Of a DNA stretch of 64,000 nucleotides, positions 32,401 through 61,313 are shown piece by piece. Below the pieces are notes generated by a model. It saw only the letters and a list, made by a program, of their open reading frames with translations. It was not told the origin of the DNA and did no database searches. This DNA is from Takakia lepidozioides (lineage: Eukaryota > Plantae > Bryophyta). The stretch's first letter is position 1. The number at the start of each line of letters is the position of its first letter. Where the stretch lies: positions 74,710,001 through 74,774,000 of the forward strand of contig CM060732.1 of NCBI GenBank assembly GCA_030704615.1, written 5' to 3'. The translations under genes and the position numbers were made by a program.

Positions 32401-35400
32401 ACTCTCATAACCAAACAGCCGTGACTGTTTAATGCTTGATTGTTAATAAAATTGCTATTTAGGTTGAGAAATGATTGTTCGCCACTCAAACGCTGAGGTG
32501 AGGGCAGAACAACTATGGATGCTATATAGATTTGACTGCAATATTCTTGTATTGCTGTATTTGGCACAGGTTGGGTGCCCATGCCATTGGTGGAGCGGTA
32601 TGAGGCTAACTGTGCTGCCGGCCGCAGTAGTATTAATTCTGCCCTGGTCACCAAGCTGAATAATCTCAAGGTAGTGTGGATAGCTCGATCCCTTGTATGA
32701 TTGTCAAAAAGCCATAATAGTACACTACAATATGTCAATCAGAGCAACTGAGCAGTGCATTTATGTGCAGGGCTCCTATGAGGAGGTGGATGCATCAGGA
32801 TGCAAGCTGCATGATGCTGCTGCTCAGCCCTTAATTGCTGCCTTGCATGAGAGTGATGCCGTCTCTGTTCTGGACCTGTCTCATAACTTTCTAGGTCAGC
32901 CTACTCCTGGACCTTGCGTTGCAGGTTAAGGGAGAAAGAAACTGCAGAGAGGTAATTACTCCAAGAGAGATGCAAGAAATATTGTATGGCATGCTCCATA
33001 GATGTAGCAGCCTCACAGGTCTTTTCATATCTGTCTCCAACTGTGATTGATTGAACGCAAACTAGAATGTGCAATTGACATGATTGGTTGCTGACATGCA
33101 GGCAATGGAACAGTGCATGCAATCCAGGAGATGATAGCAGCCACCAATCACAGTGATCTAGGGCTTACCTTGGATCTGCACCACAACCAGTTGGGTGCTG
33201 GCTCTCTCATGCAGGTCCATGTCTTAATTTCTAGTCTCCTTTGAGTGGACAAATAATTTAGCTTATTTCAGTGGAACATTTAATAAAAACCTGCAATCTT
33301 CCTGTTAAGGACAAGCAAATCCCACCAAGATGGTCCTGCTGCTCTTTATTTATCTTCTTTTCCAGAATGAAAGTAGTTGATTCAATAAAAGCTGGAGGAG
33401 TTGCTCAGGTCAGAATAGGTTGGACATTAACTTCAACCCTGTATTTTAACAGATTTGTCGGTGTCCTGTGACACTGTCTCGGCTCGAAGTTCTTAAATTG
33501 TCAGGCAACCGCCTCACAGATGCAGCTGCCCGCCATCTGGCTGTTATTCTTGCAGAAAATAAAGGCAAGAATGCCACCTAGACAATCATAACTTCACTTG
33601 TTCCTCCTCGTTTATCAGGGATCTTATCTTTGTACAGGATATGTATTTCTGTGTAGGGTTGTATTTCTCACTGTTAGTTACATGGGGAGATCAATCTGGA
33701 CATGAGAGTACTCTTAGGGTGTCAAAAAAGTTACATTGCAAGTCTTAACTTGCTCTCCATTCAGTTTAGTAGATCTATGGTGGTTGGTACTTCATTGTAA
33801 ATATCTCCTGTTTGTAGGGCAGGTTGTGATCTGTTAAGTGTTTGAACTGCAAGTTTAAGATTAAGCATGACATGGTGGGACCTGTGGGGAGTTGGTGGCT
33901 CAGCCTTGGCAACCTTGGAAGTGGAAGCATGTGGACTTACGACACGCACCATACAGCAAATTGGTAGCTCCCTGCAGCCTGGGTCTGCTCTTGTCAAACT
34001 TTCAATTGGTAAGTTGTTTGATCACTTGGTCAACTCCAGGTTCACATCCACTTATTACGTTAATGCTGAAGGAAGTAAACTCAACAAGCTTATTGAGTAG
34101 TCTGATGCTATGCAGGTGAGAACAATCCTATCGCAGGCAATGCAATGGCTCTCCTACTTCAGAAGCTTTCCACCCTTAGTAGGTATGAAGCAGTCTCACC
34201 TGTTTGTCAGAAATGATCTCATGTTCCTTGTATTTGGGGTTGACTTTAATTTCCATTGCTTTCCAGCTTCACTGAACTTGACATACGAAGGGTGGAGCTT
34301 GATCAAAAAGGAGTGGTGGCCATAACAACTCTCCTGCGCACATCATCAAGTATATCTGTAATGAATATGGCAGGATGCGACATTCAGAATGTAAAAATTC
34401 TTGTCTTTAACTTTTGTTGCTTGTTGTTGTCTCATTCCAATAAAGAGAAGGGGATTGATGACAAGTGAGAGTTAGTGAAGGGATAGATGGATGTGATACT
34501 ATCGCTGAATTTTTCTTGCAATCAGCTAGACCTCCATCATAAGACATTTTCTGTGTCTCATCCTTCTCAATAATGACAAGGACTAAAATAGTTGGAGGGC
34601 GTTTGCTATGCAGCACAATGCACAGGTCATGTGCCAAGGCATGGATGGTCCCTCTTTGCAGCTTTCAAAGCTGGACCTGTCACAGTGTGGCTTTAGCCTG
34701 GAGCCAGCTGTAAAGTTATGCGCACAGGTCATGGCAACCCAAGGTCTTGCCTTTCTCAATCTCAGCAACAACGATCTCAACCAGCAGGTTCCTATCCGCC
34801 CCTTTTTTTTGTCAGCCAGGTTATCCTTGGAATCTGCTGTGGTAGTTGTTGCTAAAGCCCCTGGAGCTGTATGGGTTTGGAAGTCTCTGTGAAGGTGGCT
34901 AACACAGCTTTTTGTGAATGTAGGCTGCGGAAGTGCTTGCACTGACACTTGCCAAAGGAGGATGCCGCTTGAAGTCCCTCTTTTTAAACAACTGTAAACT
35001 TGGGCACAGTGGTGTTCTCACTATCCTGAGTCCCCTTCAAGGCTTGTTCTGCACCCTTCACCAAAAGCTAGCATTGAACTGTTGCATTGGTAGCCCTGAT
35101 GAATGACTTTTTTGCTGTGTGATTTCATTAAAATTTCCTCCATGGGATTTGCAGGGAATTCCTTGCTCTGGGAGCTCCATATGGCTGGAAACTTTAGACC
35201 TGAACCGCAGGAAAGCCTGCTCAGGGCAGCGGCGTTGCCTCAAATAGATCACAGACGACCTGCAGACAGTAGCAACATAAGTTACAAGCAACAGCAAGGG
35301 CATCCACTCAACCATGCTGGTGCAGCCAGTGCGCTGTCTTCCGAGCTTGCCAGTGTGGAAGATGTGGACAAGAGGAGGTGTGCAGTGCCTGTGCCCAAAG

Positions 35401-35936
35401 CCACCGTCGATAACGGTGCAGGGTCCTCCATGAGTCATGATAAGCATTCCACTGCTAACTGTGATACTGCAACTCAGAATTTCGAACATGAGTCTGGCAG
35501 ACACGGAGACAAGCCTCTTGAATTGAAGCAGAGCAGTCTTGAAGTTTGTGACCACAACAGCAGCGACAGAACCTGTACCCAAGACAATGACAGGCAGGAT
35601 GTGTTTCGAGGGCTGCAACAGAATCTCGAGAGTCAGCCTGCAGAGGTTATTAGTGAAGTCGGTACAGGAGTTTGCACTATAAATGCCAATGACATAGTCT
35701 CAAGACTTGACGACCCAACCATGCAGGAACTAGTGGCAAGTATTTTACGGGCACAAGGCCTTCGCTGCCTGGATCTGAGTGACAATGGTTTCACTTCTAA
35801 GGATTTGCAGCAGTTGAGTGTGGCCTGGGGCGCTCGTCTAACTGGAATCACTTCACAACAACAAATAACAGCTCACTTGTTCGTGCCGGATGGCAGGCGT
35901 TGCTCTGCCTATGCCACTTGTTGTTCTAACCACTAG
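26461..35936 (+). CDS. TSK: TONSOKU/BRUSHY1/MGOUN3 (TPR + ubiquitin-like + LRR genome-stability protein), about 16 exons
   Basis: N-terminus [67 protein letters not shown]; LRR exons [45 protein letters not shown]; ends LDLSDNGF...CC SNH* at 35936. Confidence 0.93.
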
Positions 35937-36991: not shown

Positions 36992-39900
36992 CTAAGAAAT
37001 GGTACCAAGATATTCCAAAACCTCCTGCTTTTGCTCACTACTTTGGCAAGCCTCCATGAGGGCAGTCCTGGATTTTTGATCAGCAGTGCAGCCAGCGGCA
37101 AGCATCTCCTTAAAATACGTGAAGGCAGAATCAAATTTGGCCTCTTGGCCAAAGTTGCGCACCAGGACAGTGTAGATGGTCTGATTGGGCTTAATGCCAG
37201 CACCCTGCATCCTCCTAAAGGTGCGCAGCAGTGCCTCTGTATTTCGCACACTCGCATAGCCTAACATCAGGGTGCCAAAGGTCACCACATTTGGCTGTAT
37301 TCCTTCCTTCTTCATTCTCAAAAGTAGTTTCTCTGCCTTCGCCATATCTCCCACATTTACGTATGCAGCCATTAGGGTTGTATACGAGTGTATATCTGGC
37401 CGACACCTGCTTTGCACAGGGGCATTTTCACATCAAAAAACGCTGAACCTCAAAAGTTTTATGTTGTTCAAGCATCACCTGTCCCCAAAGAAATAACCAC
37501 AAAAGGATTGACAGTGACACATGTGAAATACCTGTCCTTAGCCATCTTCTTGAAGACAGTCTCCGCCCCCTCTAATTCTTTGGCTTTTGCATATGCATCC
37601 AGCAGAGCATTGTAGGTTATCCTTGTAGGCCTACAGGCAAATTAGCATATTGCACATCAGAAGGGCTGGCGCAGGAATTCATGATGAACTAGAATGTGGA
37701 TATGGTCTCCTGTAGTCAAGGGAACAGATGATCTCAGATCCTTCAAATAAATCACAAAAGCACCACACATTAAAGTCTCCCAAAAGTGTTCACCTAACAG
37801 CTGAACACACCCCTGGAACAAGGATTAGTGGAAAGACAGCCCATTAAAATTGGAATGAAGGAACTGAGACAACTGTTTCACCTGATTCCAGAAGCAACCA
37901 TCTCCCGAAACACAGCCTGTGCCTCCTCGACTCGCCTAGACTTGGAATACACGTTGATCAAGGCGGTATATGTGACAACGTCAGGCTTGATGCTGGCAAG
38001 CTGCATCTGAGAGCAGGGGCAGAGCGACCTGTCAGATTACCATCAACCTTTATCAGCTTCCTATGCCCCCCACGCTTATTATCTCTGTGTTGAACCGCTT
38101 TCCGGCAAGTGATGAATCGCCAATAAGCGATTCAAACGACCCTCACCATCTCTAAGTGTCAGGGAAATATGATTAAAAAGTGTGAACGTACAGATAAAAG
38201 ATCTGGCACTCTATCACCCAAGCCTATGGCAAGCCGACCCTCCGCAGAAAATAATTACGACTGCGGCACTAGACAGTGTAACTGCCAAGGCCAAGTCAAC
38301 GCGTCTGCTGGAGAGGCTGAATAGGTCAGCAGTTTCCTAGCAGTTCTGAATTGGTTGATGGCTATTATCATGTTCAATAGCTGGATGCCTAAGGAGAATA
38401 TTGTTATCATTAGCTCAGCCATATTAGCTCAGCCATTATCATTAGCTCAACCAAATCCTGTTGGGTGAGTTCTCACTCACCTATGTGCAAATAGAAAAGG
38501 AAAAGATTCCCTTCCACAATCCCATGCACTACGAATATAGATAACTCAATCATCATTGCCCCTGCCATTACCAGTCCACATAGCAGAGTCCCAGATCCTG
38601 TAATGCTAATACTATCCCATTTTCCATCTTGTTGACTCTTCAGAAAGCATATTCCATCCTATTGAACCAAATACAAGCATTTGAAGTCTCCCTTCTACAG
38701 ACTGAGATGGTTCCACTTGGAGTACCTGACGTAGGACTGCCTCAGCATCGGGAACACTCTTCTGGGAAGACATTAAGCTGTTGAAAGTGACAGATGATGG
38801 AAGCAGCCCCAAACCCTTCATTTCACGAAGCAGAGCCTGTGCTTCCGCCACCTTCCCTGACTTCCCATATGAATGGATCATGTAATTGTACAACCTTTCA
38901 TCTGGTTTCAATGTATCCCCTTGGGTCATGCTTGTAAATATCCTGCCAGCTTCCTCAGATTTTCCACCCTGCAAACACAAGTGGATGCTTTGTTAACATC
39001 ATGCATGTCATAGCACAACATTGAAGGAGTTCTGAAACAACACCAGACAAAAATCTGCTCCAATGGCTTCAAGGGGGTTAGGATTATATTCTAACACCAT
39101 ATTCTAGCACCAAGAACTCCGCAAGCTTTCTAACATAGATCACAGGAATACCTCGTGCAACAGCCTAATATATGTTTGATATGTGGCTAAGGTTGGTGCT
39201 GGGCCTGATTCAAGCATTTGTTTGAAGATAGATTCAGCCTTGTCATACAAGCCCTTTTGAGCATATGCCTCAATCAGGGACGTGTGAGGTGCCACTGTGG
39301 GTGCCACCCCTGCATCACGCATCTGCGATAACACAATCTCTGCTTTCTCTGGCTCACCCTGCTTTCCATAAGCTGCAACCAGTAGATTCTGGTCCTCGAG
39401 ACCAAACTTCCACCACTCTTGCTCCCTTAACCACTCGAGTACCTGCAATAAGTACCCAATAGGTTTGAAGCAGTTCAATACAACATAACTAAGGTCCTTA
39501 CAACTCACTCTAGAAAACCCATCTATTGCTCTAAAGACTGGATGACTGGAATAATCAAGACCAAACAAAATAACAACATGCCCAAGAGCATAAGTCCATG
39601 ATACTCTGACTTAAGCTATCTGGTGCGCCCCCACCCCGCCACAAGCTGCACATCCTTTAACCTCCAATACCCCTTATAAGCTGTTGTCTACCGACAGACA
39701 TGTTACTCACATCAATCACTGTTGCCCACAACTGAAGCTGCTTAAGCCGCACAAGAGTGCCCACAACAGTCTTCTTGGACAGTTTGCCTGCCTCCCTGTG
39801 ACTACTCAAAACTGCAATTGCGGATCCTGCCGCTGCAATTTCCTTCATCATCTTCTCCCATCGGAGCTGACTTTTAGATTCTCTAATACTGGACTCTTCC

Positions 39901-40354
39901 AGCTGCTTCACCCTTTTTGGTACAATGGCAACCGAGGCCTTCAATTCTGCCATTCCTCGCAAACTTTGTTCTGGTGGGGCTTCGTTCAGTAGGAGAGCCC
40001 GCATGAGCAGCCGTTTAGAGATAAAAATAGGGGTGTCCCTAACACCCTTTGATTGCTGCTTCCAGCTGGATTCCAGTGGTTGATGGCCATATAACCTGCA
40101 TGGATGACAGATACTCAAAACAACATTATACTACTCCTTGCTATTGACAGATGAAGTCCAGAAGAAGGTGAAATTGCCGTCCAAATTCACGAGCAATAAC
40201 CAACAAATACAAATTTTCAGGCAAATCGAGAACGGTTAGATATCAGAAGTGGCAGAGCTACGAGTAAATACTTGGACTCATCCTAAATGTGCATAGAGGC
40301 ACGTACACACCTTGTCTGAGGACAACATAAGTGCAGAAGTTGAAGTGTGGCCAT
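36992..40354 (-). CDS. P-class pentatricopeptide repeat protein, At3g59040-like, multi-exon
   Basis: Exon 40311-40354 (MATLQLLHLCCPQTR, phase 2) joins LYGHQP...VVGTLVRLKQLQLW; then LEWLREQEWWKF...LLVAAYGKQG and tandem 35-aa P repeats ending EVLEYLGTIS* at 36992. A probable non-coding first exon lies near 40868-41000. Confidence 0.85.
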
Positions 40355-42685: not shown

Positions 42686-44933
42686 TCATCGACCCCGGAG
42701 TTGATGTGCCTCACGCCAACAATTGCCAAGACACAGGAATGCATCCTCGTATTGGGGACAGCAATAGTAGGTACGCTGCCCACAGCGGATGCACACACGA
42801 CGAAGCGAGCTGTGCAACGATGAATGCCAGCGGGAAGGCTCTGTCGCCAACACGGACGCATGAACCGGGCGCACAGGTAGCCTGGCAAGAGCTCTAAGAG
42901 CGTGTGCCAAGGCCAGCGAGAACTCCAGATGGGTCATCCCATGCAACCCCCTCGCTCGCATGTGATGGACATGCAAGATGTAAGAATTGACAATCGTGGT
43001 GTCCACAAGGAAAAAAAAACACTTTATGCCACCATTTGTGAGTCTTCAGCTGCATGCTATATGCAACTCGCATCTGGTCCTGTACATCTACACCACACAT
43101 GTAAGTTTGGTATCGAACATGCATTGGAACAGAAGGCACCTGCACCCTGGCATTCCCCACAAATCTTCGCACCATCACAGGTGAATTTGGGCCAGATGCT
43201 GGTCAAGATGCAGATGGCACCATGAACACGTCTTTCTTATCCTACCACAAACAAGCAGCAACTTGTCGGCTGCGGTGCATATGCCACCATGTGTCCCCTT
43301 GCTTAGTAATCTTGGACTTGGACAATTGCGTCAAAGAAGGGGCAATCCCTTTCTATTGACCCTGACAGTGTCAGTGGCCCATGTCCCAAGCAAAGCCATG
43401 TCATACAACAACCTTGGTGATGTGAAGTAATTGTCAGTCACCACCACATGGCCGAGTCCATGCAATGGAGACACTATCCTCATGACCACATTATATCCTT
43501 CATTTTTGCCAGACTTCTCCCTCATGCCCTCAGGGCCCCCATTCTTGCCACAGTAGACATCAAAATCATACACATAGCTACTGACTGCATCTACAAGGGC
43601 CCACACTTTAATGCCCCACTTGCATGGCTTTCTAGGCATATACTTTCGTATAGCACAATACTAATTACCTTTGTACCTTATCATAATTTCATCAACTGTC
43701 AGCAATTTGTGCAGGTTCCAATGCCGTTTGCAAGCACTGGCAATGTCTTCACAGGCCCATCTTACTTTCCCAATTTTGTCAAACGCAGGACTGCTACGAT
43801 CAGACACCAGCGTCGAGTTATCCACCAAATGCAAGCAACGCAAAATTGCTTCATAACGATCTCTTGTCGTGACCTTCTTAATCATAGAGCATGCAAAGAA
43901 TACCTCACTCTGCTGCCAGTAGCAGTGGCTGTTTGGCAGCCTTCTTATCCCCATGAACAAACACACACCAAGCCAGGCCAGCACCTCTGGCACAACCAAT
44001 GGGCTCCACGAAGCACCACCTCGAGTTCCAGACGTCACTCTCTCCACCGAGTAATGATTGGTCTCCTGAAAAATTCGCAGCAGGGTTGCGGGGGACCAGA
44101 ATAACTTGAAAAACAATTCCATAGGGGAACAATTCCCAAAAATCTGTTGTGCAGCATAGGCCCACGTGGCGGACCAGTGGAGAATCTCTCTATCACTGCA
44201 GAAGGTAGTTTCAACTTTGCACTCCTAATTCGTAGGAGCGAACAAAGCGGCAAAGGCCTCTTCACTCACCTCCTCCACGTCCTCCAAAGGCCCATTACTC
44301 TCCCAGTCCATTTCCTCACATGAATCGCCCTCATATCCCTCCCTAGGAACCATCTCCACATCCCCATTTTCACAATCCAACAAGTCTAAACCACTAGCAT
44401 CCAAATTGGGCCCCGCATGAGAAGAGCCCTGCAAATTCAAAGACAACGCACGCAGGGAGACCTGCAGGAGTTAGCGGCAAACACACAGTCACCCGCGGTG
44501 AATTGCAATTGTGTGCTACCGCCCCAGTGCACCCCGCATCACTTCTTCTCCTCACACTCTTCTCCTCACATGTGGTCGATGAGGAGGCGAATTGTCCTTG
44601 CCCGCAGGCCTTTCCCACTTCTGGCGCGGTGCATCCCTCATTTGTTTCACTGTCCTCATCTGGCCAGATATCCTCTCTGAGCACAACATTCACAACCTCA
44701 CTAAAGCCCTCTTTATCACATTCTTCCCTTCTCTCTTTCCACCCCAAAATCAAACTAACATGCCTTCTAAACGCAAAGCAAAAATTCACATGACGCGGAA
44801 TATGCTTCGGCCACCGCTGCGCGCGCAGAGGCAGAGGCAAAGAAAGCAAGTACTCCTCACACATCAGACCCAAAATGTCCCTCAATTGCCCATCAGTACA
44901 GTGCTGCTCAATCAACACCCACTGAGTGAGCAA
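42686..44933 (-). mobile_element. Decayed piggyBac-family (PGBD-like, DDE_Tnp_1_7) transposase
   Basis: Frameshifted segments FFKLFWS..IFQETNHY, TRDRYEAILRCLHL, LTVDEIMIRYKG, YMPRKPCKWGIKVW, VVTDNYFTS, YQTYMCGVDVQDQM, KWWHKVFF and a C-terminal Cys-rich tail CIRCGQRTYYCCPQ..LCLGNCWREAH. TIRs and TTAA TSD not identified. Confidence 0.88.
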
Positions 44934-44980: not shown

Positions 44981-45389
44981 CTCCGGCCGAAGCCGGCGTA
45001 ACTAAGAGCCATTTCGTCTCACGGCTACTACCCCCTTTCGAGAGTGGGCCCTATAAAGAAACAGGTGTCCATGGGACACCGGGTAACCAGGGGGAAGTGG
45101 TAGATAGGATAGCGGTGCCTAGGGTACCGAGGGTACTATGGGGTACCGAAGAGGGATTAGACTCGAGTTGCCACTTATCGTTAATGATAGTTGTTAGGGA
45201 GCGAAGCGCATTGAGGTGAATAGCCTTAAAGCATTTGTGGATCGGGGGGATAGGAATTTTAAGATTATTGTGTAACGCATTTATACTGGCAGTATGAATA
45301 CCACCTCTAGTTCCGGCTGTGATGACCGAAAGGGGGCCGGTGCGCCAACCACGCTGTGCAGGGTGAATGAGGACAGATACACAGGAGGC

Positions 45390-46440
45390 TTACGTTGGTG
45401 TCCCATGTATGGAGCGTAGCAAAATTTGAGTGTTTGTCGGATTTGCGTGTCAGTGGCAGTCTTGGTGCACTGCCAGAAGTAGTTTGATAACTTATGGTGA
45501 AGAACTGTAGATTGTGTCCATTTTTGGATATGGGCTTTGGTGTGGCTGGTAGATGCTAAGGTTTGTTTGTTTGCTTCTCGTATGAGAATGGTTTGCAGAT
45601 GACGTATAGGCTTGGTGGTTGGGGGTTCTGGTACTGGATGAATTAGCCAGAATGGGTGGGTATGAGCAATATGGATGGGGTCGGCCGTGGGATCCAGTGG
45701 GGGTTTGGCAGCCCCCGACTGGGCGAGGAGGTATGTCTTATCATTGCCGGTGATACCCGTATGGGAGCGAACTTTGATAAAATGTATGGGGTAACCGCAC
45801 GGTTGATGATATCTGTGATGAGGTTTCGATCGGGGTGATGAGGTGGCAGGAGTGGCTGGAGAGGTGGTTGCGAAGAAGAAATAGTGAGGTAAGGCTGTCT
45901 GTGAAAATGTAGTATGGGGTGGGGGAGGGTAGCTGGGAGAGTGCTTCAAAGATTGCCATAAGCTCAGCGCGTAATATAGTGGTTGGGCCTAGAAGTCTAA
46001 GAGTCACGACCCCTTGGTTATTAGCAGCATGATAAATGTCATAGCCGGCGTTAGGCTTGCATTAGAGCCGGATTGGGAGCCGTTTGTATAGTGGAAGTGG
46101 GAGGGAGGGAATTTGAGCGGCATGCGTTGATGGGAGATCGGTGGATCAGGAGAAGGGTGCGAGAGGGGCAGGAGAATGGCACCGTAACGCCCTTATCCAG
46201 GCCTTGCTTCGGTTGACTCATGGAAACAGGTAGGGTGAGGAGCTAGGTGGACTGAATGGGTGGGGATGTGTGGTGGGGGTAATGGAAACTTTCATCCCCT
46301 ATGTGCGTACGAGTAAGTGGTGTAAGGTAAAGGGGAGGCTAATGGGCATGGAGATAGGAGAGGTGTTGGACAAGCAATAATGACGTAATCGTGGATTCCA
46401 AACGTCGGAGGTATTTAGGGGAGGGGGGGATGTACTCGTA
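45390..46440 (-). mobile_element. Non-LTR retrotransposon fragment with RNase H domain (pseudogenised)
   Basis: HYTNGS (degenerate YTDGS, ~46080-46095), TILRAELMAI, YIFTDSLTSL, FIKVRSHTGITGND, followed by LSNYFW and QIRQTLKF; similar G-rich sequence resumes at about 55160-55420. Confidence 0.8.
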
Positions 46441-48504
46441 TAGTAGCTGGCACGGGAGGGGGGTCACTATATGTATTTTTTCCATATCACGTGCGTACAA
46501 AGGTATATTTATACTAGGCTATATTTTTAAAATTTTGCATTTTTTTCCACCTTATCTTTAGGTAATATTGTAAAACCCTTTGTTTTTTCTAACACCCTAT
46601 TTTTTATAATTATTTTTTTGTAACAATTAATTAGACCATATTTTAAATTGTCCTTTTGAATAATTACAAAATTTCAAAGCATGTACACAAACAAATACAT
46701 TCCATATAACATAAGTCAAATGTCGGACCCAAGAAAAAGTTTAATTTTCATTAGCCACGAACTCATTCAAAGCCGCAGCATCACTTGTGACATGGTTTTA
46801 GTCATGGTTATCTAGAATTACCTACTTCTAGTTAACTAGGACATTTTAGATATTTATATTTATATTTTGTGTGTTGGGACTTCATTTGGTCTCACATGCC
46901 AAGTGAGGTGTCAAGCCTCACTTGAGACATGGAGATAGGTTTTCCCCTTGTGAGTGTTGAGGAGGCTCATCTTCTTGTAGTTGAGCCTTCATGAGCTTCT
47001 CTCACCTCCATAGCTCTAGGTATTGAGAGGGAGTGTGTTGAGGGCTTTGTAGGGTGATTCCTTTAGCAAAGGTGCCCTTGGCTTGACTTAGTTTATGTGA
47101 TATAGTGGATTTCACTTGGAAGGACTAGGGCTTGTTCTTCATGTGATTGCTTCATGCTTTGAGAGCTTTCATTGTCTTCTACTTCTCTCATTTCTCATCT
47201 CTTATCACTACAAGAAGATCACCTTATGCTTGTGAGTGCGGAGTGTAAGGATTAGTTTTGCACTTGTATTTTAAAGAGGTTGAGAGCTAGGAGAATTTAG
47301 CTCTTGTATCACAAGGCTTGCAAGGGGTTGCAAGGAAAGGTGCTCGAGTATTGCATGTACCAAGGAGTTGGAGAGCTTGAGAAGAAAGCTCTTGAGTCAC
47401 AAGATTTTGCAAGGATTGTAAGGAGGAAGTCTTGTGTGTGTGGAAGCATGGATTCTAGGGTTTGAGAATCCTTTGTATGCATATGGAGTCGATGGTGTGC
47501 GCCATGGCTTGTGGAGAGTGACTAAAGGTTTGTTAATGCTCATTTCACTATTAAGCAAGTTCAAAGTGTGGATGTTGTGGAAGAGAAGCCAATGAGCTAT
47601 ATATGCTTGGGCTTGAAGACAACAAGGGCAAGCACTTGTAGAGCACTAAGAAGCTCAAGAGGTTTTGAAAGGGAGCATGTGAAGAAATCTTCCAATCATG
47701 GTGGTGTGGAGCCAAGCTTAGGGTGCCATTGGAAGGGCTTGGAGAACATGTGGTGGGAAATCCTTGAAGGGAAATCATCATTCAATGTATGCATAGCTTC
47801 ACCCTAACTATGTAATGTGACAAGAGGGGAAGACAATACTTGGCTATTCATGCTCTTGGTAGTGCGAGCTTTGTGGTGGATAGTTGACCAAGCAAGTGGT
47901 GCATGTGTGGAGCATGCTTGCTTGAGTTTGTAAGTTCAAGTTTGAGAAGGGGAGCTCTTGAACTAGCAAGAGGTGAAGGCCGTTGAGATCCATTTATGTG
48001 TGAAGTGGAGAGGTGTTGATTTATGTTATGATGAAGGAGAGCAACACATAGGCCAAGAGGTCATGGAACATGCATTCAAATGACCACGGGGAGCACATGG
48101 ATGATGGATTGGTGCAAGACCCCAAATGAGGCATATGGCGTGAGAGTGGGATCCAAGGCGGATTGCTTGGGAGCATTATTGTAAGTGACAAGTATTGCTC
48201 CTACACATTGAGATAATTTGTGTTGATTTGGAGCAATTGTCAAGTGATGAGGAGACAAATGCATGATTGCTCGTCAATGGAGATATGGTAGTTTGCAATC
48301 AAATCCCAAGGACTAGAAGGGGGATTGATTTGGTGGACAATGACTTGCAAGTTGAGTTGGACCACTCTTGGTTGCACATTGGGGTGGAAGAGAGCAAAAA
48401 GATGTCTCTTATGACCACCTAGAGACCATATTTTTGCTTGAGTAGAAGTATAGAAGTCGAGGACTTGCATTCTAGCTCTTCATTACAAACCCTAGTAGTG
48501 TATG

Positions 48505-48900
48505 CTCAGACTATACCTCTGTTAGTATACCAAACAGGAGCTTGTCCCTTTGACTATACCTCTGTTGAGGTATCACCATATGTGAACCCTAATGTGAGAC
48601 TATACCTCTGTTAGTATACCAAATAAGAGCTTGTCCATTTTACTATACCTCTATTGAGGTATCACCATATGTGAACCCTAATCAGCTCAGACTATACCTC
48701 TGTTAGTATACCAAATAGGAGCTTGTCCCTTTTACTATACCTCTGTTGAGGTATCACCATATGTGGACCCTAATCAGCTCAGACTATACCTCTGTTAGTA
48801 TACCAAACAGAACCCTCATTTTCAGACTATACCTCTGTAAAGGTATCATCAACATAAGGGACCCTAGCAACCTAGACTATACCTCTGTTAAGGTATCAAC
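48505..48900 (+). repeat. Tandem array, ~90-bp unit with nine CTATACCTCT core copies
   Basis: Cores at about 48511, 48554, 48600, 48643, 48692, 48735, 48784, 48827, 48877; upstream of the Gypsy gag. Confidence 0.9.
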
Positions 48901-48929
48901 AGTGAAAGGACTTAGTGAAATTTAAGGGT

Positions 48930-49100
48930 CTTTGGAGGATTGTTTGGAAGATATTTGAGGGCCCTTGGAGGAGTATTTGGAGGATATTTGGGGTCCTTGG
49001 AGGAGTGTTTGGAGGATCTTTGGGGTCCTTGGAGGACCCTTCGAGGAGTTTTGGTGGACAATGTTGAAGAGCTCTTGAAGGATTGATTGAGGGATATTGA
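48930..49100 (+). repeat. Degenerate TTGGAGGA-rich tandem repeat (~33-bp unit)
   Basis: Repeated ttggaggatatttggggtccttggaggagt-type units. Confidence 0.75.
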
Positions 49101-49630
49101 AGGATACTTGCCACGGCCATACAAGCGAGTGGATAGAGACAGGAGGGAGAGTGGTGGGATGAGAGCATTCTGGGGTTAGGAATTGCTTTAGTTTCTCTTC
49201 TCCATAGTCTTTCACCCTCTCTGTAGACCAAAACCTTTCCGTAGGTGGAGGCAAGAGTCAGTCCGGGTTTGGGCTGGGGTGTCCTTGCAGGAGCGACACT
49301 GTGGAGTGTTTCTGGTGTGGGGGAGTTGCTGTCTTGATTTTCTTGTGTTTGGATCCCCTCCACACCTACATGCTTGACTGTGCGCCATGTTAGCTTTGTG
49401 TGGGCACTTGTTTTCATAGGAGGTTGGTCCGGATTTGATCACCGGCCAATCCTAGAGTATGCTGTCGGTGGTGAGGCTGGAGTGATGACCAACAAGACCA
49501 CCAGTGTTTCTTCTATGGTGAGGCTGGGTTGATGACCAGCAGACCATAGGAGTGCTTGCGGTGGATGCAGGTACAGGTACAGGTCTACGTTAGAAACCAA
49601 TTATTCCTGCTTGAACCAGTAGCCGCAACA

Positions 49631-52600
49631 GGTTCTTTACCCGGTTACCTTGTAGAAAGTGGGGATTAGAGACAGGTTGACAACCGGTTGGGTTGTGAGT
49701 TTTCATCACGGAGGTGCCACCAGCTGCTGAGGGGAGTGCCGGTATGAGCACCAGCGATACTAGTGGGTACACAAGACAAAGTGTGCGGTTTAGGCCACTT
49801 TCACCTTCAGTGTCTTCTGAGGAAGGTTCAGACTCGGAGTCAGGAGGATTCTCGCCGAGGGTGCAAGTAATTTCCGTGCCATTGTTGTGGGACACGATGG
49901 AGGAGATGTATGGAGCTACCAAGGGGCCACGTAGGTACTCTGGAGCTGTGGGCACCATCGAGCTTGATGACTTTATACAAGAGTTTGACAGTTGGTGTGA
50001 TTTGCAGCAAACGCGCAATCCACAACTGTTTACGCCCTTTATGGCGTGGAAGGGGCTATTCCAGCACCTTGAGGGGCCGCCCATGGATGATTACCATGAA
50101 TTTAGGCGAGGACATATGGTGGAGATTGAGGAGTGGCGAGAGTATTGGTCACCTAACTATATCTCAATCACTAGAGGCACAAAGGCAGCGGTGACACCAG
50201 CAGCTACACAAACATCTCCAACTACAAGCACTAGTAGTGGAACAAGTAGTGCCAGTACTTCTGCAGGTGGTACCAGTTCAAAAGGTGCTACTACTCCTCC
50301 TGCCACGACTACAACACATGTGCCTAGATTCAACCCGGTGGTGGAGTTCTTCCAGGAGTTGCGGAGGAACTACCAAGGTGTACGGACAAAGAAACTGCGA
50401 AGTTTGCAAGACTTCCAGCGCAAATCCAGTAAGAGCTTGTGAGAGGCCTACACTCGTATGAGGCGCTTGATAAGTGTGAACCAAGGGGTTACTGAAGCTC
50501 AGGCAGTCCGGTTCTGGTATGGAATTTTGGACAAGGAGCTCAGGAGAAGGGTGCAGGATGCATCCCTGTTACAAGCGGCCCAACTCACATTAGCGGATGT
50601 GTTTCTGCTGGCTGAGCGGATTGAGCTCAATATGGTGGAGGAGCGAGTTGTTACCATTGGATTTGGCAAGGACATGCCTGCACGAGGCGCAGCTGCCAGC
50701 CAACAGGTACAAGGGACTGCCCAACAGCGTGGTCAGGGGGGCAAGGTTGTCCAACTCAAATTCCATGGAGCTTACAGGGGACCTCAGGTGCAGAGGCCAG
50801 TAACAGCAACCAGGGGTGGTATGTTGGACATGTGGAGGACCCCATGTCAAGAAAGATTGCCCAGAAAGTGGCAAATGGAGCCTTATCCCTTCCAGATACA
50901 GATATCTTTGGGAGGATCAGAGCAGGCTCGGGGCATGACACGGCGTGAATTGGCCATTATACTACAGCCGGATCATCCTATAGATGGCTTAGTGATGCGA
51001 GCCAAGGCCATTGTGCAAAACGCGGTCTCTTACGATGTCCTCGTTGGTGGGGCAGTGTTGTATCCCATGGGCTTTACCCTGGATTTTTGGGAGGAGTCAG
51101 CATCCTCAGGCCTGGATGGCAGTCAGGGGATGGTCATCGTATACAGCTCCCTGTGACTTTCATTGGGGGTGTTGCTGCTGCCCAACGGGGCAAGATGCCA
51201 ACACTAGCAGCCTTCACAACTGCAGTTAGTTGGCCTGGAGAGTTGTTGGAGGGCAATGCCCATGCAGAGGATGTGTCACCTCCAGCAGAGCAGGATGACA
51301 TGCATGGTATGGCGGAGTTGCCTGCCATGGTTGCTCACACTCCATTGTGGGGTACGAGCAAGGATTTGCAGCAGGCTACTGATAGACGGGTGCAACAAGC
51401 CTAGGTAGAGGCCTTTGTACCGTCAAGAGAGGAGGAGAGTGCGGTGATTGCACCAGGACCACCTCAGTTGTCGCCATTGGACACCACACCTCTTGTGTGG
51501 CAGTGCCTGGATGAAGGCATATGTCTTCTGGACTTGTTTGGCGGGATTAGCAGTGGATTGGCTGGAGTGCTGCAGGCGGGTGTACGAGTTCGACGTTATC
51601 TATATGTGGAGAGGGATGAGACTGCACGACGCGTCTCACTGCGCCATGTTGCTCAGTTGGTGCAGCAGTACCCTGATTTGTTGCCAGTGTCTGCAGTTCG
51701 TGGATACCAACAAGCCTTGCCAGCAGACATCTCCTTGCTAGGGGCGCATGATTTGGAGCGGATTGGCCCTGCCAAGGGCTTTCATCAGCTGGGTATGGCA
51801 ATGGGTTACAAGACTTAAGGTCACGCCTGTTTTGGGAGATGTTGAGGGTCCTGCGCTATTTACAGCTTCAGCAGATAGACTCTCCGGCATATATCTTGGA
51901 GAATGTGCCATTGATGGGTGATTCTCGGGCCAAGGTGATGGCCAGTGTACATCAAGTGCGGTCTTGGCTTGGGTCAGCAGTGTTGCTGGATGCAGCTGCA
52001 GTGGGGTCACGGGCTTATCGCCCACGACTATGGTGGACCAACTTGATGCCACCTGCATTGCTCAAGCGTGCATTTGATGGGGGTGCAACGGCCACCAAAC
52101 CTGACGAAGGATAGCAATTTGGACATAGGGAGGCAGTCTAAGCGTGTGAGACACGATGACCGATCACCTTTGGCAGTGGTCAATAAGGTGGGCCACCCAC
52201 GAGCAACATTGCCTACACTGCTCAGCTTTCCAGGATCTCATGCTTTCCGGGATGGTGGACCTGGCCTCTTGTGGGATAGCCAGTTGCAGCAGTTAGTGGA
52301 GCCCAATGCTGACGAGCACGAGCGGGCAATGGGTTTCACCAATGGTACCACGGCGGTGCCATCTTTTTCTGAGGCATCACGTCGTCAGGTGTTGGGGCAA
52401 ACAATGGATCTCAATTGCTTGACCTGGATTATCAGCTTGGCTATGGCTGAGCAGCACAGAGTACAGAGTATACTTCCCTTGATGGTCTCCCTGCCTACTG
52501 AGACGGTACAGGCAGCGAGTGGGGGCGAACAGGTGAGGACCACGAGGTGCAGGCCGCATCCATGGCACACGTGGGAGGTGCTCGAGGTTCAAAAGGAGTT

Positions 52601-54618
52601 GGCAGCCAAGGCGGCCGTGATGGATAAGGTTGGGGATTTTTCTCGGGTTGAGGAGGTCCTCAATGATGGGATGATGGGGCAGGATGAGACATTGTCACTG
52701 ACAGAGGAGGCAGTGGTCACTGCTCAAGAGGTTGCAACATAGCAACCACGGGACGCGTCTTCTACCTCTAAGCCTGCTGGACTCAAGGTTGCAGTCACGG
52801 ATGACAACTGGGAGCCTGATGTTGGACCTATAGTCACCGGAGGAGAAAGACGACGTATACGGCAGTTCTTGAGGGCTTATAGGAACTGCTTTGCCTTCAA
52901 TTTGAAGGACTTAGGAGCACTGAAGGGTCAAGAGATTCGCATTGAATTGGCTACTGACACGCCAATCTTTCGGAGACCCTATAGATACAGTGACATGGAG
53001 AGGTCCTTGATTCAGATGAGAACTCAGGACCTTTGGGAGGCTGGTTTGGTGGAGCTATCTGGGGGAGAGTATGCTTCAGCCACAGTGATGCCAGCCAAGA
53101 AGGATGTCTATGGCAATTGGACGGAGAGACGTATGTGCGGTGATTACCGGCCTGTAAATCGTCAGACCAAGTCCGATAGGTATGTCATGCCGACACCAGA
53201 GGAGATCTTTGATGCCATTGGGCATGCCAAGGTCTTTAGCACTTTGGATTTACGATCCGGATATCACCAGTTGCCGATCAATGAAGCGGATAAGCAGAAG
53301 ACGACATTCTGGGGGATCAATGAGCACGGGAATGATTGCCTATACCAGTGGCGGTTCTTACCATTTGGGCTTAAGAACGCTCCGGCAGAGTTTCAGAGAG
53401 TCATGGACATGATTCTAGCAGGGGTGGAGTTTGCTCGGTGCTACATAGATGACATCATCATCTTTAGTGCTACGGTGGAGGAGCATGAGAGACACCTTCA
53501 GGTGATATTTGAGCGCTTGAGGGCGCACGGATTGAAGTTACATCCGGGGAAGTGCAAGTTTTTCCACAACCAAATTGAGTATCTGGGTCACATGATATAT
53601 CCTGGAGGATTGGGGGTACAGCAGACTAAGGTAGAGTCCATTGCACAGATTCCACGCCCCATGTGAGCCGAGTTCGAGCTTTCATGGGGTTAGCAAACTA
53701 TTATAGACGGTTTGTTAAGGGATTTAGTGCCATTGCAAAGGCTCTAACCAAACTGACCAAGGTGGACCAGGAGTGGCAGTGGGAAGATGAGCAAGAACAA
53801 TCTTTTCAAGAGCTCAAGGCGAGGATGACCTCGGCGCCCATCTTGAGACGACCTATCAGGGGCCGTCCTTTTCAGCTGCATACAGATTGGAGCATGCTGG
53901 GGCTTGGAGCGGTGCTCACACAGGTGGATGATGAGGGAAGAGAGTTCGTAGTGGCTTATGCTAGCCGCTTGAACAACGCTGCAGAATCTAAGTATAGCTC
54001 ATATGAGGGAGAATGCTTAGCTGTAGTGTGAGCCGTGGCACACTTCAGGTGCTATCTATACGACAATCTCTTCACCCTTGTCACGGATCACCAACCACTC
54101 AAGTGGTTGATGGAGTCAGACAAGCTTACGGGGAAGCTTGCACGGTGGGCACTCATCCTTTAAGAGTATGACTTTCAGGTTGTGCATCGACCGGGTTTGG
54201 TCAATCGGGATGCAGATGGGTTGAGTCGCAATCCATGCACGAGCCAGCAGGATGATACTGGAGCTCGGTGGCATGGTGAGACGGACGAGGAGATGGTGCC
54301 CGGATGGTATGCATTTGCATTTCTGTGTATCTTTGCAGCGAAAGACCAGGTTGGACCTACAACAACGATGACTGTAGATCGAGTGTCTGAGGACCCTGAG
54401 GCCAACAATGAGCAAGGTGCCGCCAAAGATATACATGAGGATTCAGTTGTGTTGGACCACCTCCGCACTGGAGACACGACAACCACTGTGACTGCCAAGG
54501 AGAGGGATCGGATCCTACAACAAGCCAAGAGGTTCAAGTGGGAAGGGACACGGCTACTCCAAGTGTGGGAGGATGGTCGAGTGAGGATTGTGCCTCACCC
54601 AACACAGCGGGCACGGTT
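49631..54618 (+). mobile_element. Ty3/Gypsy LTR retrotransposon internal region (gag-PR-DNMT-RT-RNaseH-truncated INT), pseudogenised
   Basis: Gag from ~49897 with zinc knuckle CWTCGGPHVKKDC (50822); protease C-half YDVLVGGAVL; RT RMCGDYRPVN, LDLRSGYHQ, LPFGLKNAP, YIDDII (52869-53666); RNase H LHTDWS, YSSYEGECLAV, TDHQPL, NRDADGLSR; sequence breaks at the start of the integrase region. 5' LTR probably ends ...GCAACA at 49630; its start is not resolved. Confidence 0.92.
51516..52435 (+). pseudogene. DNMT3-like C5 cytosine DNA methyltransferase domain inside the Gypsy pol
   Basis: Motif I LLDLFGGIS (51525-51551), motif II YVERD, motif IV WPCQGLS (51764-51784, alternative frame), motif VI ILENV, motif VIII RPRLWWTNL, motifs IX-X EHERAMGF...RRQVLGQTMD; two frameshifts. 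Confidence 0.9.
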
Positions 54619-55994
54619 ATTGCTTCATGCTTTGAGAGCTTTCATTGTCTTTTACTTCTCTCATTTCTCATCTCTTATCATTGTGGTAGAGCTTTCTAGG
54701 ATTGTGTGCTTAGATTGTGTGGTGGACAACGATGTATGTTGTGGCACGATGCTTAGGTGCACGACACTTGGATCTGAAGATTATAAGTTTTGAGATGGTT
54801 CAAATGTCATAGTCATTGTTGAGATTATGGTATCAACATCAATCCACTGTGTATCACTGGAATCATATTTGAACTTCAGGTGACCTCTACCTGATTTCAT
54901 CCTGATGGATTAGAGTTGGATGAAATATGATAAACCTCACAAAGATGGATACATTATATTGTAGATAAAACCCTTTATTACATTAACTTTTAAAGTAAAA
55001 CTCTGGATTTTTGGTGACCCTTCTTTTAAAAAATTGGGTAAAAGGATATTGCCCTACCATGTTTTTTAAGTAATTTTTTTCTACATTTTACCTCAAAAAA
55101 AAAAATAACACCCTATATTTGTTCTCACGTGGTTTTGAAAATATGGGGAGTGACCCCCCAAGGTAGCTGGTCAGTGGTTCAAAGGTGGATATAAGGGTAA
55201 CGCCAGGAGGGAGTTGTAGGAGAACCCTTGTGGTGTGGCTCATTTAGCTCGGGGCTTATCGTGCGTGAAGAACGCACGGGGAACTTCCCCCTTTGCCATG
55301 TCAATAAGCTGGTTTTACGTTTTACCTATTATGTCAACCATTGCCTTTATCTCTTACCTATCATATCAACCGCAGCTTTCTAAATCATCCGCGGTCTTTT
55401 CTGCGCTTTGTGCTTGCAGTGTCTAGTTCGAAGTGCGCTACAACTTTCCTATCTTTTCTCTTTCAGTCCCGAATTCCTTTTCAATCCTAATTCCTATTCA
55501 ATTGTTTTTTTATTCTGTCAGGATGGCTAGAGATCAATGTGGTTGTCCAAGTTTTGACTTTTGACCTCGACATTTCTCACGATGATTGCCTTACAAATTC
55601 TACCATTGCTCATGTAATGAATTCTACCATTGTTTCTTCGGTTAATTCTACCGTCGCTCAAGTGATTTACGGAAGCTCATCTAGTCAAAACAATGATGAA
55701 ACTGCACTTGCCCATGTTGATCTGGTCTCCTGTATTGCTATTTCTGTCGACGCTCCACTTGTACTGTTGAGCCAAGTTTACCATCTGAGAGCATTCCACG
55801 TCTGGATGTTGAGCCTTCTTCTCTCTTCTGGTCCTTCCTACAACACTGTAGATACTTTTGAAGAGGAGATGGATAAGGATATAGCTCACCAGTTTACACA
55901 TTCACTCCGACATGCTGCCATTGTTTCCAACCCTCGTTTCAGGAGATTGACCCAACGGAACTCGATAATGTCAATTATGGTGGCAGATGAAGGA

Positions 55995-58412: not shown

Positions 58413-61313
58413 TCACCAGTAATCCCCACAAGAACAAACCCCATCTTCGAAGTGGTGAAAGCGATTAGCGTCCCTTACAACAATTGCTCGGCCAACAATC
58501 TTTGAGATGAACTTGGTGGCGGTGTGACAGTCACCACATACCCGAAGATTCTTGATGATACGGAGAGGCGTCCCAGGGGCTGTGCTGATCAACCCAAAAC
58601 CAATGGCCAGCTTCTCACTGTGGTAGCAAAGAGAAAATTCCTTTTGGTCCTCTCCCACATCATGCAATACAAAGCGCGTGTCAGGCACATACCCTGCATC
58701 CTTCATCTGCCCAGACAATCTTCTCAGCTCAGCATGGATTTCCTCAATTTTTGGATGCAATTTGTCATCTACAACAAAGGTGTGCACCCTGTTGCTGACC
58801 TCAATGCAGCAGCAACCTGGATCCTTTCTAACCCCTCTGACCTGCATCATTTTTCTCATCTTTGCAGTATCGTCCCATCTGCCAGCAGCAGCATAGATGT
58901 TTGATAACAACACGTAAGAAGCGGCGTCCTGTTCATCCCACTGGAGAATATATGTTGCCGCACGCTCAGCCATCTCCACATTGCAATGAATTCTGCAGGC
59001 ACCAAGCAAGGCCCTCCACACCGCAGCATTTGGTCTCATTGGCATTTTGTTAATGAAGTCCTCTGCCTCATCTAATCGCCCTGCACGTCCAAGAAGGTCC
59101 ACCATGCAGCCGAAGTGTTCCACAGCTGGAGTAATTCCATGCTCTTGACTCAGGGAGTCAAAATAGTATCTGCCTTCATCCACTAGGCCAGCATGGCTAC
59201 ATGCAGAGAGAACACATATAAAAGTGACACTGTCCAGCTTCAAGCCTTCCATTTGCATTTCTTCCAATAGTTGCAGGGCCTCCATATCACAACCATGCTG
59301 GGCATATCCTGCGATCATCGAACTCCAGGACACCACATTTCGTTCAGCCATATTGTCGAAGACTCCCTTTGCATCTTTGATGCTCCCGCATTTAGCATAC
59401 ATGTTCACAAGGGTAGAGTTCAGAATGACATCTGGTACAATTCCAGCTTTGACAATGTCACCATGCACCTCTTTGCCCTTTTCCAGGGCTGCCAGGCTCG
59501 CACACGCATTGCAAATGCAAATAAATGTGACCTGGTCGGGATTCACCCCTTCCAGCATCATTTGCTCATAGGTCTCCACAGCCTCCAACCCACACCCAAG
59601 CTTGGCATATCCTGCAATCATTGTGTTCCAGGACACCACATCTCGTTCACCCATATTGTCAAAAACTCCCTTTGCATCTTTGATGCTCCTGCCTTTGGCA
59701 TACATGTCCACGAGGGTATTGTTCAGAATGACACCTGGTGCAATTCCAGCTTTGCTGATATCACCATGCACCTCTTTGCCCTTTTCCAGGAATGCCAGGC
59801 TTGCACATGCATTGCAAACGCAAATGAACGTGACCTGGTTGGGCTTCACCCCTTCCCCCATCATTTGCTCATAGGTCTCCAAAGCCTCCATCCCACGCCC
59901 ATGCTGGGCATATCCAGCGATCATTGTGTTCCAGGACACCACATCTCGTTCAGCCATATTCTCAAACACTCCCTTTGCATCCTCGATGCTCCCGCATTTG
60001 GCATACATGTCCACCAGGGCAGTGTTCAGAATGACATCTGGTACAACTCTAGCTTTGATGATGTCACCATGGACCTCTTTGCCCTTTTCCAGGGCTGCCA
60101 GACTTGCGCACGCATTGCAAATGCAAACGAATGTGAGCTGGTCTGGCTTCACCCCTTCCCGCATCATTTGCTCATAGGTCTCCAAAGCCTCCATCCCATA
60201 CCCATGCTGCACACATCCTGCCATCATCGCAGTCCATGACACCACATTTCGTTCAGCCATACTGTCGAACACTCTCTTTGCATCCTTGGGGCTCCCGCAT
60301 TTGGCATACATATCCACCAGGGTATTGTTCAGTATGACATCTGGTACAATTCCAGCTTTGATGATGTCACCATGGACCTCTTTGCCCTTTTCCAGGGCTG
60401 CCAGGCTTGCACACGCCTTGCAAATGCAAATGAATGTAACCTGGTCTGGCTTCTCCCCTCCCCGTATCATTTGCTCATAGGTCTCCAAGGCCTCCATTCC
60501 ACAACCATGCTGGGCATATCCTGTGATCATTGCATTCCAAGACACCACATCTCGTTGGACCATATTGTCGAACACTCCCTTTGCATCCTTGATACTCCCA
60601 CACTTTGCATACATGTTCATCAGGACAGTGTTTAGAATGACATCTGGTACAATTCCAGCTGTGATGATGTCACCGTGGACCTTTCTGGCCTTTTCCAGGG
60701 CTGCCACGCTCGCACATGCATTGCAAACGCAAATGAATGTGACCCGGTCTGGCTTCACCCCTTCCCCCATCATTCGATCATAAGTCTCCAAAGCGTTCTT
60801 ACCACACCCATGCTTGGTAAATCCTGCCATCATTATATTCCACGTGATTAAGTCTCGTTCAGGCATTTCGCTGAACACTTGGTGTGCATCCAAGATGCTC
60901 CCGCATTTGACATACATGTTGACAAGGGTGTTGTGTAGAAAAACGTTTGGCTTGAATCCACTCTGGATAATGTGAGCGTGCACCTGCTTTCCTGCTTCCA
61001 GCAGTTTCTTTTTTATGCACTTATGCAAGAGACAGACATAAGTGTCTGAATCTGCTGAAAAGCCTCCTTGGTTTAAAATCTGTAAGGCCTCTTTCAGTTG
61101 TCCTGCCTCACATAGTGTCCTCACATGCCCAAAAGTGCCAGAAGAGGTCTTGTGGACTCCCTCTCTTGGTCCTCTTTTGGAACCTGTGGTCATGGTGGAG
61201 GTGAATAATGTTATAAACTGCGCCTCCGCCGCTGCTTCCAGTTGAACACAGCTATTGATCCGCAGGGGATCATAGGTACTCATGTGCTTGAAATCCAGCA
61301 CTGTCGGATTAAT
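58413..61313 (-). CDS. PLS-E-DYW pentatricopeptide RNA-editing factor (DYW:PG type), final exon
   Basis: About 20 P/L/S motifs, E1/E2, PG box ([11 protein letters not shown]), deaminase signature HSEKLA...RVCGDCH and terminal CSCGDYW*; uninterrupted ORF. Confidence 0.97.

Follow-up and report, generated by a model that had tools for sequence, protein, structure and literature searches.

Why should a moss retrotransposon carry a cytosine methyltransferase, and on which DNA would such an enzyme act? The question is raised by a stretch of 64,000 nucleotides (nt) of the Takakia lepidozioides genome (GenBank assembly GCA_030704615.1, contig CM060732.1, positions 74,710,001 to 74,774,000 of the forward strand), called the window below, in which a retrotransposon at 46788-54766 contains a DNMT3-like methyltransferase (DNMT) domain. 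That the element belongs to a high-copy moss Ty3/gypsy family with a DNMT3-like domain in its first reading frame can be held as very nearly certain. The copy in the window is decayed. The overall reading developed here, in which the family encodes a Gag-protease-DNMT frame, is likely self-primed and likely integrates from a circle, and in which the packaged DNMT would methylate the element's complementary DNA (cDNA), is regarded as reasonably probable.

The methyltransferase domain and its element

The original prediction, made from the letters of the window alone, had named seven DNMT motifs, and all of them are found on the + strand in the claimed order between 51522 and 52405:

51486..52451, + strand, DNMT3-like C5 cytosine methyltransferase domain, in three segments, with a 28-nt deletion at 51764 and a frameshift at 52079-52083
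51522 (frame), 51591, 51764 and 51896, + strand, starts of the DNMT motifs LDLFGG, YVERD, WPCQG and ENV
52016, 52320 and 52380, + strand, starts of the DNMT motifs RPRLWWTNL, ERAMGF and RRQVLG

The middle piece (51752-52111) alone matches the PF00145 profile at E = 2.2e-8 and 34.4 bits, against a threshold of 22 bits; neither the N-terminal nor the C-terminal piece, scanned alone, matched any Pfam family. Motifs I, IV (PC), VI (ENV), VIII (RxR), IX and X of C5 cytosine methyltransferases, in what we take to be their usual numbering, are canonical and in order. The closest PDB entries for the middle segment are DNMT3A, then DNMT3B. For an intact environmental homolog, P0008, they are DNMT3A (6e-12) and 4onj (1e-8), followed by the weaker DRM2 (1.6e-4) and HaeIII and HhaI (3e-4 or higher); 4onj, an entry named only 'DNA methyltransferase', is presumably a plant DRM. 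The predicted DNMT3-like identity holds in this similarity ranking, where the domain stands nearer to DNMT3A/B than to DRM, DNMT1, DNMT2 or bacterial enzymes, and its motifs are not rearranged. Across a 46-row alignment the catalytic cysteine is kept in 45 rows, the motif VI glutamate in 43 and the second arginine of motif VIII in 44. An AlphaFold model of the P0008 domain that used this alignment reached a predicted local distance difference test score (pLDDT) of 92, and prediction of the fold from a single sequence gave 34.

Lesions in the window copy were examined against two kinds of material. Copies in the Takakia host were judged from contigs of sequencing runs, in which summed depth is not equivalent to copy number. 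In a metagenome collection a relative is encoded in 211 of 242 matched stretches, and the loci analysed are the best 80 of these 211, ranked by a DNMT-containing query; peat-moss-like stretches among them are termed moss loci, and the translation of one, L003, is by eye nearly that of a Sphagnum fallax protein. The deletion predicted at TGGCCC (51764-51769) is real: a contig of run X5 carries 28 gap letters across the site, and loose contig ends at 51763/51767 (runs X1 and X5) show that the missing DNMT segment is present in other copies. The DLVIAG-type segment is retained in 57 of the 81 WPCxG-containing frames of the moss loci. The deletion does shift the frame as claimed, but a second frameshift had been overlooked at the G-run 52079-52083, and it divides the motifs among three segments. 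The DNMT does lie between protease and reverse transcriptase (RT), as had been stated, yet only the C-terminal half of the protease precedes it, the N-terminal half with the catalytic motif having been deleted near 50860. The verdict that this copy is dead stands, given stops at 50440, 51402, 54029 and 54161 and frameshifts near 51106, 51764, 52080 and 53660; the Gag knuckle and what follows it up to the middle of the protease, as well as most of the integrase, are also lost. The remaining features of the element are as follows:

46784..46787, + strand, left 4-bp target-site duplication (TSD), identical to 54767-54770
46788..47207, + strand, repeat A1, 5' end of the element; begins TG, last 65 nt 97% to 54616-54680, adjoined by the primer-binding site
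46969..46980, + strand, predicted self-primer, complementary to 47208-47219 (12/12)
47208..47219, + strand, predicted primer-binding site (PBS), directly 3' of A1, pairing with the element's own RNA
47220..49896, + strand, long 5' leader, with a 92-bp tandem repeat at 48508-48872
49897..50860, + strand, Gag; premature stop at 50440, zinc-knuckle region to protease N-half deleted near 50860
50863..51164, + strand, aspartic protease, C-terminal half; frameshift near 51106, tblastn match to P0011/P0009
52740..52748, + strand, in-frame stop then CAA, between the DNMT linker and RT, conserved among moss loci
52866..53657, + strand, RT (RVT_1, E = 1.1e-32); frameshift near 53660, at the RT end
53663..54283, + strand, RNase H (RT_RNaseH_2, E = 4e-26); stops at 54029 and 54161
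54425..54615, + strand, integrase start; the remaining integrase, PHD finger, polypurine tract (PPT), repeat B1 and most of repeat A2 are deleted here
54616..54680, + strand, repeat A2, 3' tail, matching the last 65 nt of A1
54681..54766, + strand, repeat B2, 3' end of the element, terminating in CA
54767..54770, + strand, right 4-bp TSD, matching the left one

The limits of the element are given by an empty-site joint from 46781 to 54765 in contigs of runs X1 and X5, which skips 7983 nt (7979 + 4). The element sits nested inside another repeat (46500-46787 and 54767-55200), for which contigs with an empty site exist. We infer that A1 consists of part of U3 plus R-U5 and that the predicted self-primer at 46969 is the RNA 5' end. 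Summed depth is about tenfold lower across the leader portion 47373-49118, which is probably specific to a subfamily. The integrase resumes at 54630 in other copies, and the complete order is visible in L003 and in a second locus, L151. The order Gag, protease, RT, RNase H, integrase, with a DDE integrase and a short TSD, is that of Ty3/gypsy elements, and the predicted assignment is borne out by RVT_1 and RT_RNaseH_2 lying 3' of the DNMT and by the 4-bp TSD. The integrase part of the search profile, itself derived from algal-type relatives, best matches Ty3 Gag-Pol. Scanned relatives showed no tyrosine recombinase family match and carry rve and Integrase_H2C2 instead; full-length relatives showed no Chromo match and have a C-terminal PHD finger.

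Hosts, selection and phylogeny

The proposed extension of DNMT-carrying Gypsy elements into land plants is supported by moss and liverwort relatives, with identities of about 70% in Marchantia, Calypogeia and Sphagnum. A search with the middle DNMT segment returned 34 proteins among 2718 candidates, 16 of them named as Marchantia polymorpha, Calypogeia fissa or Sphagnum troendelagicum. A search with the Marchantia DNMT domain returned 79 among 7996 and added Sphagnum fallax, Haematococcus and Monoraphidium, and a Hariotina protein was found as a further relative; no Klebsormidium-named sequence was among the protein search matches. Identity between the window and Marchantia is 72-80% in Gag (P0011), 65-76% in the DNMT pieces and 66-75% in RT. 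Three such proteins (P0016, P0032 and P0039) are annotated as ordinary methyltransferase genes and can inflate bryophyte DNMT counts. The DNMT lies between protease and RT in all 38 loci that have both, a count biased by the picking of loci with a DNMT-containing query. A comparison of dN and dS, suggested with the original prediction, places the DNMT under purifying selection comparable to that on RT: between the window and the moss loci dN is 0.22-0.28 for the DNMT pieces (68-77 loci) and 0.20 for RT (49 loci), while synonymous sites are almost saturated (pS 0.71-0.80). In the host, the sequencing run with most had 52,191 contigs on the element, and the summed depth of the DNMT is about that of Gag. 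The observed/expected (o/e) ratio of CWG is 0.6-0.7 in L003, L056, L028, L030 and L017 and 1.34 in the host copy (49897-54615), a contrast hinting at different CHG methylation histories. In the viral_contigs collection the RT query found no match and the DNMT profile found phage-type enzymes only, at 22-45% local identity. The closest viral match, a phage-collection methyltransferase (L081 9842-10897), covers the larger part of the domain at 29% (E = 4e-22).

The RT tree comprised 31 of 90 rows plus L151 and L152, two loci filed in cyanobacterial metagenome-assembled genomes that are probably eukaryotic contaminants. L151 (1-9285) is a circular assembly, its two 127-nt ends being identical, with two long open frames, and L152, of a chlorophyte-type clade, has a 3265-codon frame in the order RT, RNase H, DNMT, integrase, PHD. 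The DNMT tree comprised 64 hand-picked transposon proteins and the three window pieces, P0355 having been dropped for low coverage. The profile used to find representatives included integrase and PHD columns; its top 150 matches favour proteins of the L152 order and hold no host DNMT3. Two layouts separate in the trees. In the bryophyte clade and in deeper rows the DNMT precedes RT; in 72 other rows, the named chlorophytes among them, it follows RNase H and precedes the integrase. The second group (P0060-P0099, P0238-P0369 and L152) has a PHD finger too and includes Haematococcus, Monoraphidium and Hariotina; no description of it was found in the open-access literature. The bryophyte RT clade is supported at 100/97, with L151 as its sister (99/99). 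Four rows of the RT tree lacking a DNMT appear to be truncated (P0380 begins only at RT; P0108, P0111 and P0113 fall in the P0080 cluster), and for that reason the tree shows no DNMT-less sister.

Within the bryophyte clade the Marchantia and peat-moss-like RTs (P0009, P0043, L001, L024, L030) pair at 100/99, with the window RT outside. The window also holds a multi-exon TONSOKU/BRUSHY1 gene (26461-35924, + strand). In a TONSOKU tree of 20 of the 120 listed matches its first exon groups with Ceratodon and one other protein at 100/99, on a long branch, which places the host among the mosses at some distance from Ceratodon; a fern host was considered and rejected. The conflict between this host tree and the RT tree implies either horizontal transfer or old paralogous lineages.

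The family matches, in every feature compared, KnitGypsy-Dnmt3 of the freshwater alga Klebsormidium nitens (de Mendoza et al., 2018; PMC5890265), a likeness of description and layout. Both have an intronless Dnmt3-like domain in a Gypsy polyprotein, A-coding-B-A-B repeats and purifying selection on the DNMT, and in mosses the intronless DNMT shares its frame with Gag and RT and precedes a conserved stop. The present family differs in being high-copy and in its hosts, mosses and liverworts. Its self-primer, PPT, junction palindrome, 4-bp TSD, stop and PHD finger have no mention for KnitGypsy-Dnmt3 in the available portion of that paper. SymbioDIRS-Dnmt3 is likewise a DNMT retrotransposon with split repeats, its CG activity proven in yeast, but has a tyrosine recombinase (PMC5890265). 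EpiLTRs also carry a cytosine methyltransferase, but one with a DNMT4-related domain, accompanied by DAM and a chromodomain (bioRxiv 10.64898/2026.05.21.726589). That 2026 preprint mentions 'streptophytes (Gypsy-DNMT3)', citing earlier work, and PMC12344493 repeats it; the available portions of PMC10952607, PMC11982613 and PMC2774666 hold nothing further on Gypsy-DNMT3 elements. A phrase search of open-access papers found such elements named only in de Mendoza et al. (2018) and the preprint.

Priming, the conserved stop and the split repeats

The stop at 52740 could be mistaken for a lesion, a view ruled out by its conservation: a stop followed by CAA occurs at the same site in 54 of the 55 moss loci that align there (36 TAG, 18 TAA), and also in L151. 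CAA after UAG is likened here to what we take to be the leaky-stop context of tobacco mosaic virus, for which no supporting paper was found. Many database proteins end shortly after the DNMT, likely because of this stop; 33 proteins have only protease and DNMT by profile scan, some of them being fragments. As to priming, none of 20000 random 12-mers from the window finds a match within A1, and the pairing of primer and PBS appears in the folded RNA prediction. Another pair, with compensating changes, stands in the moss loci some 30 nt beyond a TATA-like word and reaches a run of at least 9 nt in 8 of 21; L151 carries a third pair, of 13 nt. Both readthrough of the stop and self-priming appear highly probable. 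The original prediction mentions neither the stop nor the self-primer, and it is silent on the split repeats and the junction palindrome described below. Tf1/sushi-type elements self-prime, as does the plant Tcn1 clade, whose hosts include mosses and club-mosses (Neumann et al., 2019; PMC6317226). Like them the present family is predicted to use a self-priming PBS instead of a tRNA primer; it differs in having a PHD finger where they have a chromodomain, and in its permuted long terminal repeats (LTRs) and DNMT.

From 5' to 3', moss loci consist of A, roughly 339 nt long, the coding region, the PPT, a 115-nt B, two spacer nucleotides, and then A and B again. Among the 25 loci with a B match, eight end in B-A-B, 11 have PPT-B followed by flank, and six are incomplete or cut off where the contig stops. 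Four of six distinct two-ended moss copies have an exact TSD, and the other two agree at three of four positions. The insert ends are A and B-A-B, not two complete identical LTRs, although the element would otherwise work as an LTR element does; B stood upstream in none of 20 5' ends (17 distinct). The join of A2 to B2 shows no base gained or lost in seven of seven copies, with one A shared, and the PPT-B and B-spacer-A joints are seen also in contigs of the host's other copies. L151 has one B-spacer-A LTR. Single-B inserts were considered as products of one-LTR circles and rejected, since L014 (single B) and L071 (B-A-B) have an identical 3' flank; B-B recombination or assembly collapse accounts for at least the L014 case.

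In L003 and L006 B meets A in a near-palindrome, whose two CA ends are two bases apart. The 10-bp core of this sequence is found a single time in each of L151 and L152, at about 100 and about 230 nt, respectively, beyond a G-run; as a background, phage and bacterial loci totalling 2.19 Mb contain it once. The B arm of the palindrome contains CG in the window, in L151, in L152 and in 16 of 26 moss B ends, the remaining ten having TG or CA.

Proposed integration route and possible role of the methyltransferase

These features can be assembled into a replication scheme. Gag-protease-DNMT would be the major product, with RT, RNase H, integrase and PHD finger arising from occasional readthrough; with Pol thus rare, the DNMT would be packaged at Gag-like amounts, in the particle where cDNA forms. 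The first 12 nt of the RNA would prime the minus strand as in Tf1, and the PPT would prime the plus strand, so that from the positions of PPT and PBS the cDNA LTRs would have the form B-spacer-A. The U5 end would then be joined exactly to the U3 start, making the A2|B2 junction, and the DDE integrase would make a staggered cut at the left-LTR palindrome, leaving two CA-3' ends and losing the 2-nt spacer. Such a cut after end joining would make the insert, A-coding-B-spacer-A-B, a circular permutation of the cDNA. Meanwhile the DNMT would methylate CG on the new cDNA, and the insert would arrive resembling host heterochromatin, or protected. The end-joined circle is slightly favoured as the integration route, and methylation of the cDNA by the DNMT, one of the two targets (cDNA or integration site) suggested with the original prediction, has a small balance of probability on its side. 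Foamy-virus integrase cuts the palindromic LTR-LTR junction with loss of 2 nt (Delelis et al., 2005; PMC1180852), and prototype foamy virus resembles the moss family in having a palindrome with 2 nt between two CA ends. Its palindrome is the LTR-LTR junction, whereas that of the moss elements lies inside the LTR, and hence the moss insert is permuted. A permuted-circle integration route for LTR retrotransposons was not found described in the open-access literature.

Several observations weigh against this scheme. The B|A junction is exact in just two of eight moss copies, the other six having 1-2 substitutions, and 13 of 21 moss loci have no run of at least 9 nt at the expected primer position, the pair having decayed. 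In mosses the stop is followed by CAA-CCC, which does not fully match what we take to be the CAR-YYA readthrough motif. In P0058 and P0332, two deeper relatives, one open frame spans both DNMT and RT; the stop is therefore clade-specific. The CpG o/e of the element is 0.50, not below that of the window (0.41) or of the DYW gene described below (0.40), so that CpG depletion, considered as a sign of self-methylation, was not seen. A ligated two-LTR circle would have two equivalent palindromes, and ligation alone leaves their one-sided use, with none of 20 ends the other way, unexplained. Use of the left palindrome only could come from RT running on over the shared base or from a methyl mark. The widest extension is improbable as a whole: a green-lineage-wide Ty3 superfamily, from chlorophytes to mosses and liverworts, would integrate from an end-joined circle, not from a linear cDNA; the circle would be opened at the internal palindrome, and the DNMT, present at Gag level, would mark the B-arm CG so that only the left site is cut, which would couple self-methylation to integration.

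One-sidedness, together with the uniform A2|B2 junction, which would then be inherited, is accounted for by templating of the PAT/DIRS kind, in which the RNA would extend into B2 and the internal B1|A2 junction would rebuild both ends; no LTR joining would be needed, and integrase would trim 2-nt extensions on linear or nicked cDNA. The repeat layout is indeed that of split-direct-repeat DIRS elements (PMC5890265), but the PPT before B1 and the self-priming PBS after A1, which such templating leaves without their usual role, point to strong-stop transfer at R, skipping B2, and the explanation is considered doubtful. Somewhat less unlikely is that the anatomy stands but the DNMT is not for cDNA, serving in nucleic-acid binding, RNA methylation, restraint of the element or marking of target chromatin. 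The CpG ratios given above agree with such a role, alternatives of this kind are listed by the authors of PMC5890265, and the K. nitens Dnmt3 domain gave no methylation in yeast, a result that they call inconclusive (PMC5890265) and that also counts against a cDNA-methylating enzyme in mosses. Set against it are the conservation of the full catalytic set, including the motif VIII arginines, the de novo CG methylation by the related SymbioDIRS-Dnmt3 domains (PMC5890265), and the position of the DNMT upstream of the conserved stop, which suggests packaging with Gag. The heavily rearranged and frameshifted window copy, taken by itself, might be the result of a one-off capture of a host DNMT3 fragment, or of a nested insertion. 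The original prediction had named such a capture as what would refute it, and its probability is now negligible: liverwort and peat-moss proteins, like the moss loci, have this domain in the corresponding position, and it is without introns, under purifying selection and, in the host, at about the depth of Gag. The other refuting outcome named there, a profile search that fails to support a C5-MTase, is countered by the PF00145 match.

Other features of the window lie on the minus strand. An intronless PLS-type pentatricopeptide repeat (PPR) gene at 58413-61283 (about 956 codons) has E, E+ and DYW domains and 303-bp repeats; PPR-like exon fragments lie at 39140-40130. A DDE_Tnp_1_7 transposase fragment lies at 43661-44224 (E = 3e-23), and an RNase H fragment at 45281-46061 (E = 5e-5, below the cutoff) resembles a non-LTR element.

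Retrotransposon DNMT3 has been known from Klebsormidium and dinoflagellates, and its presence in an abundant, conserved family of mosses and of the genetic model Marchantia makes its role testable on natural cDNA. One reading of the DIRS-like repeats, in an element with a DDE integrase, is that an LTR circle was permuted by being opened at a palindrome, and this palindrome is kept as far as a chlorophyte-type relative.

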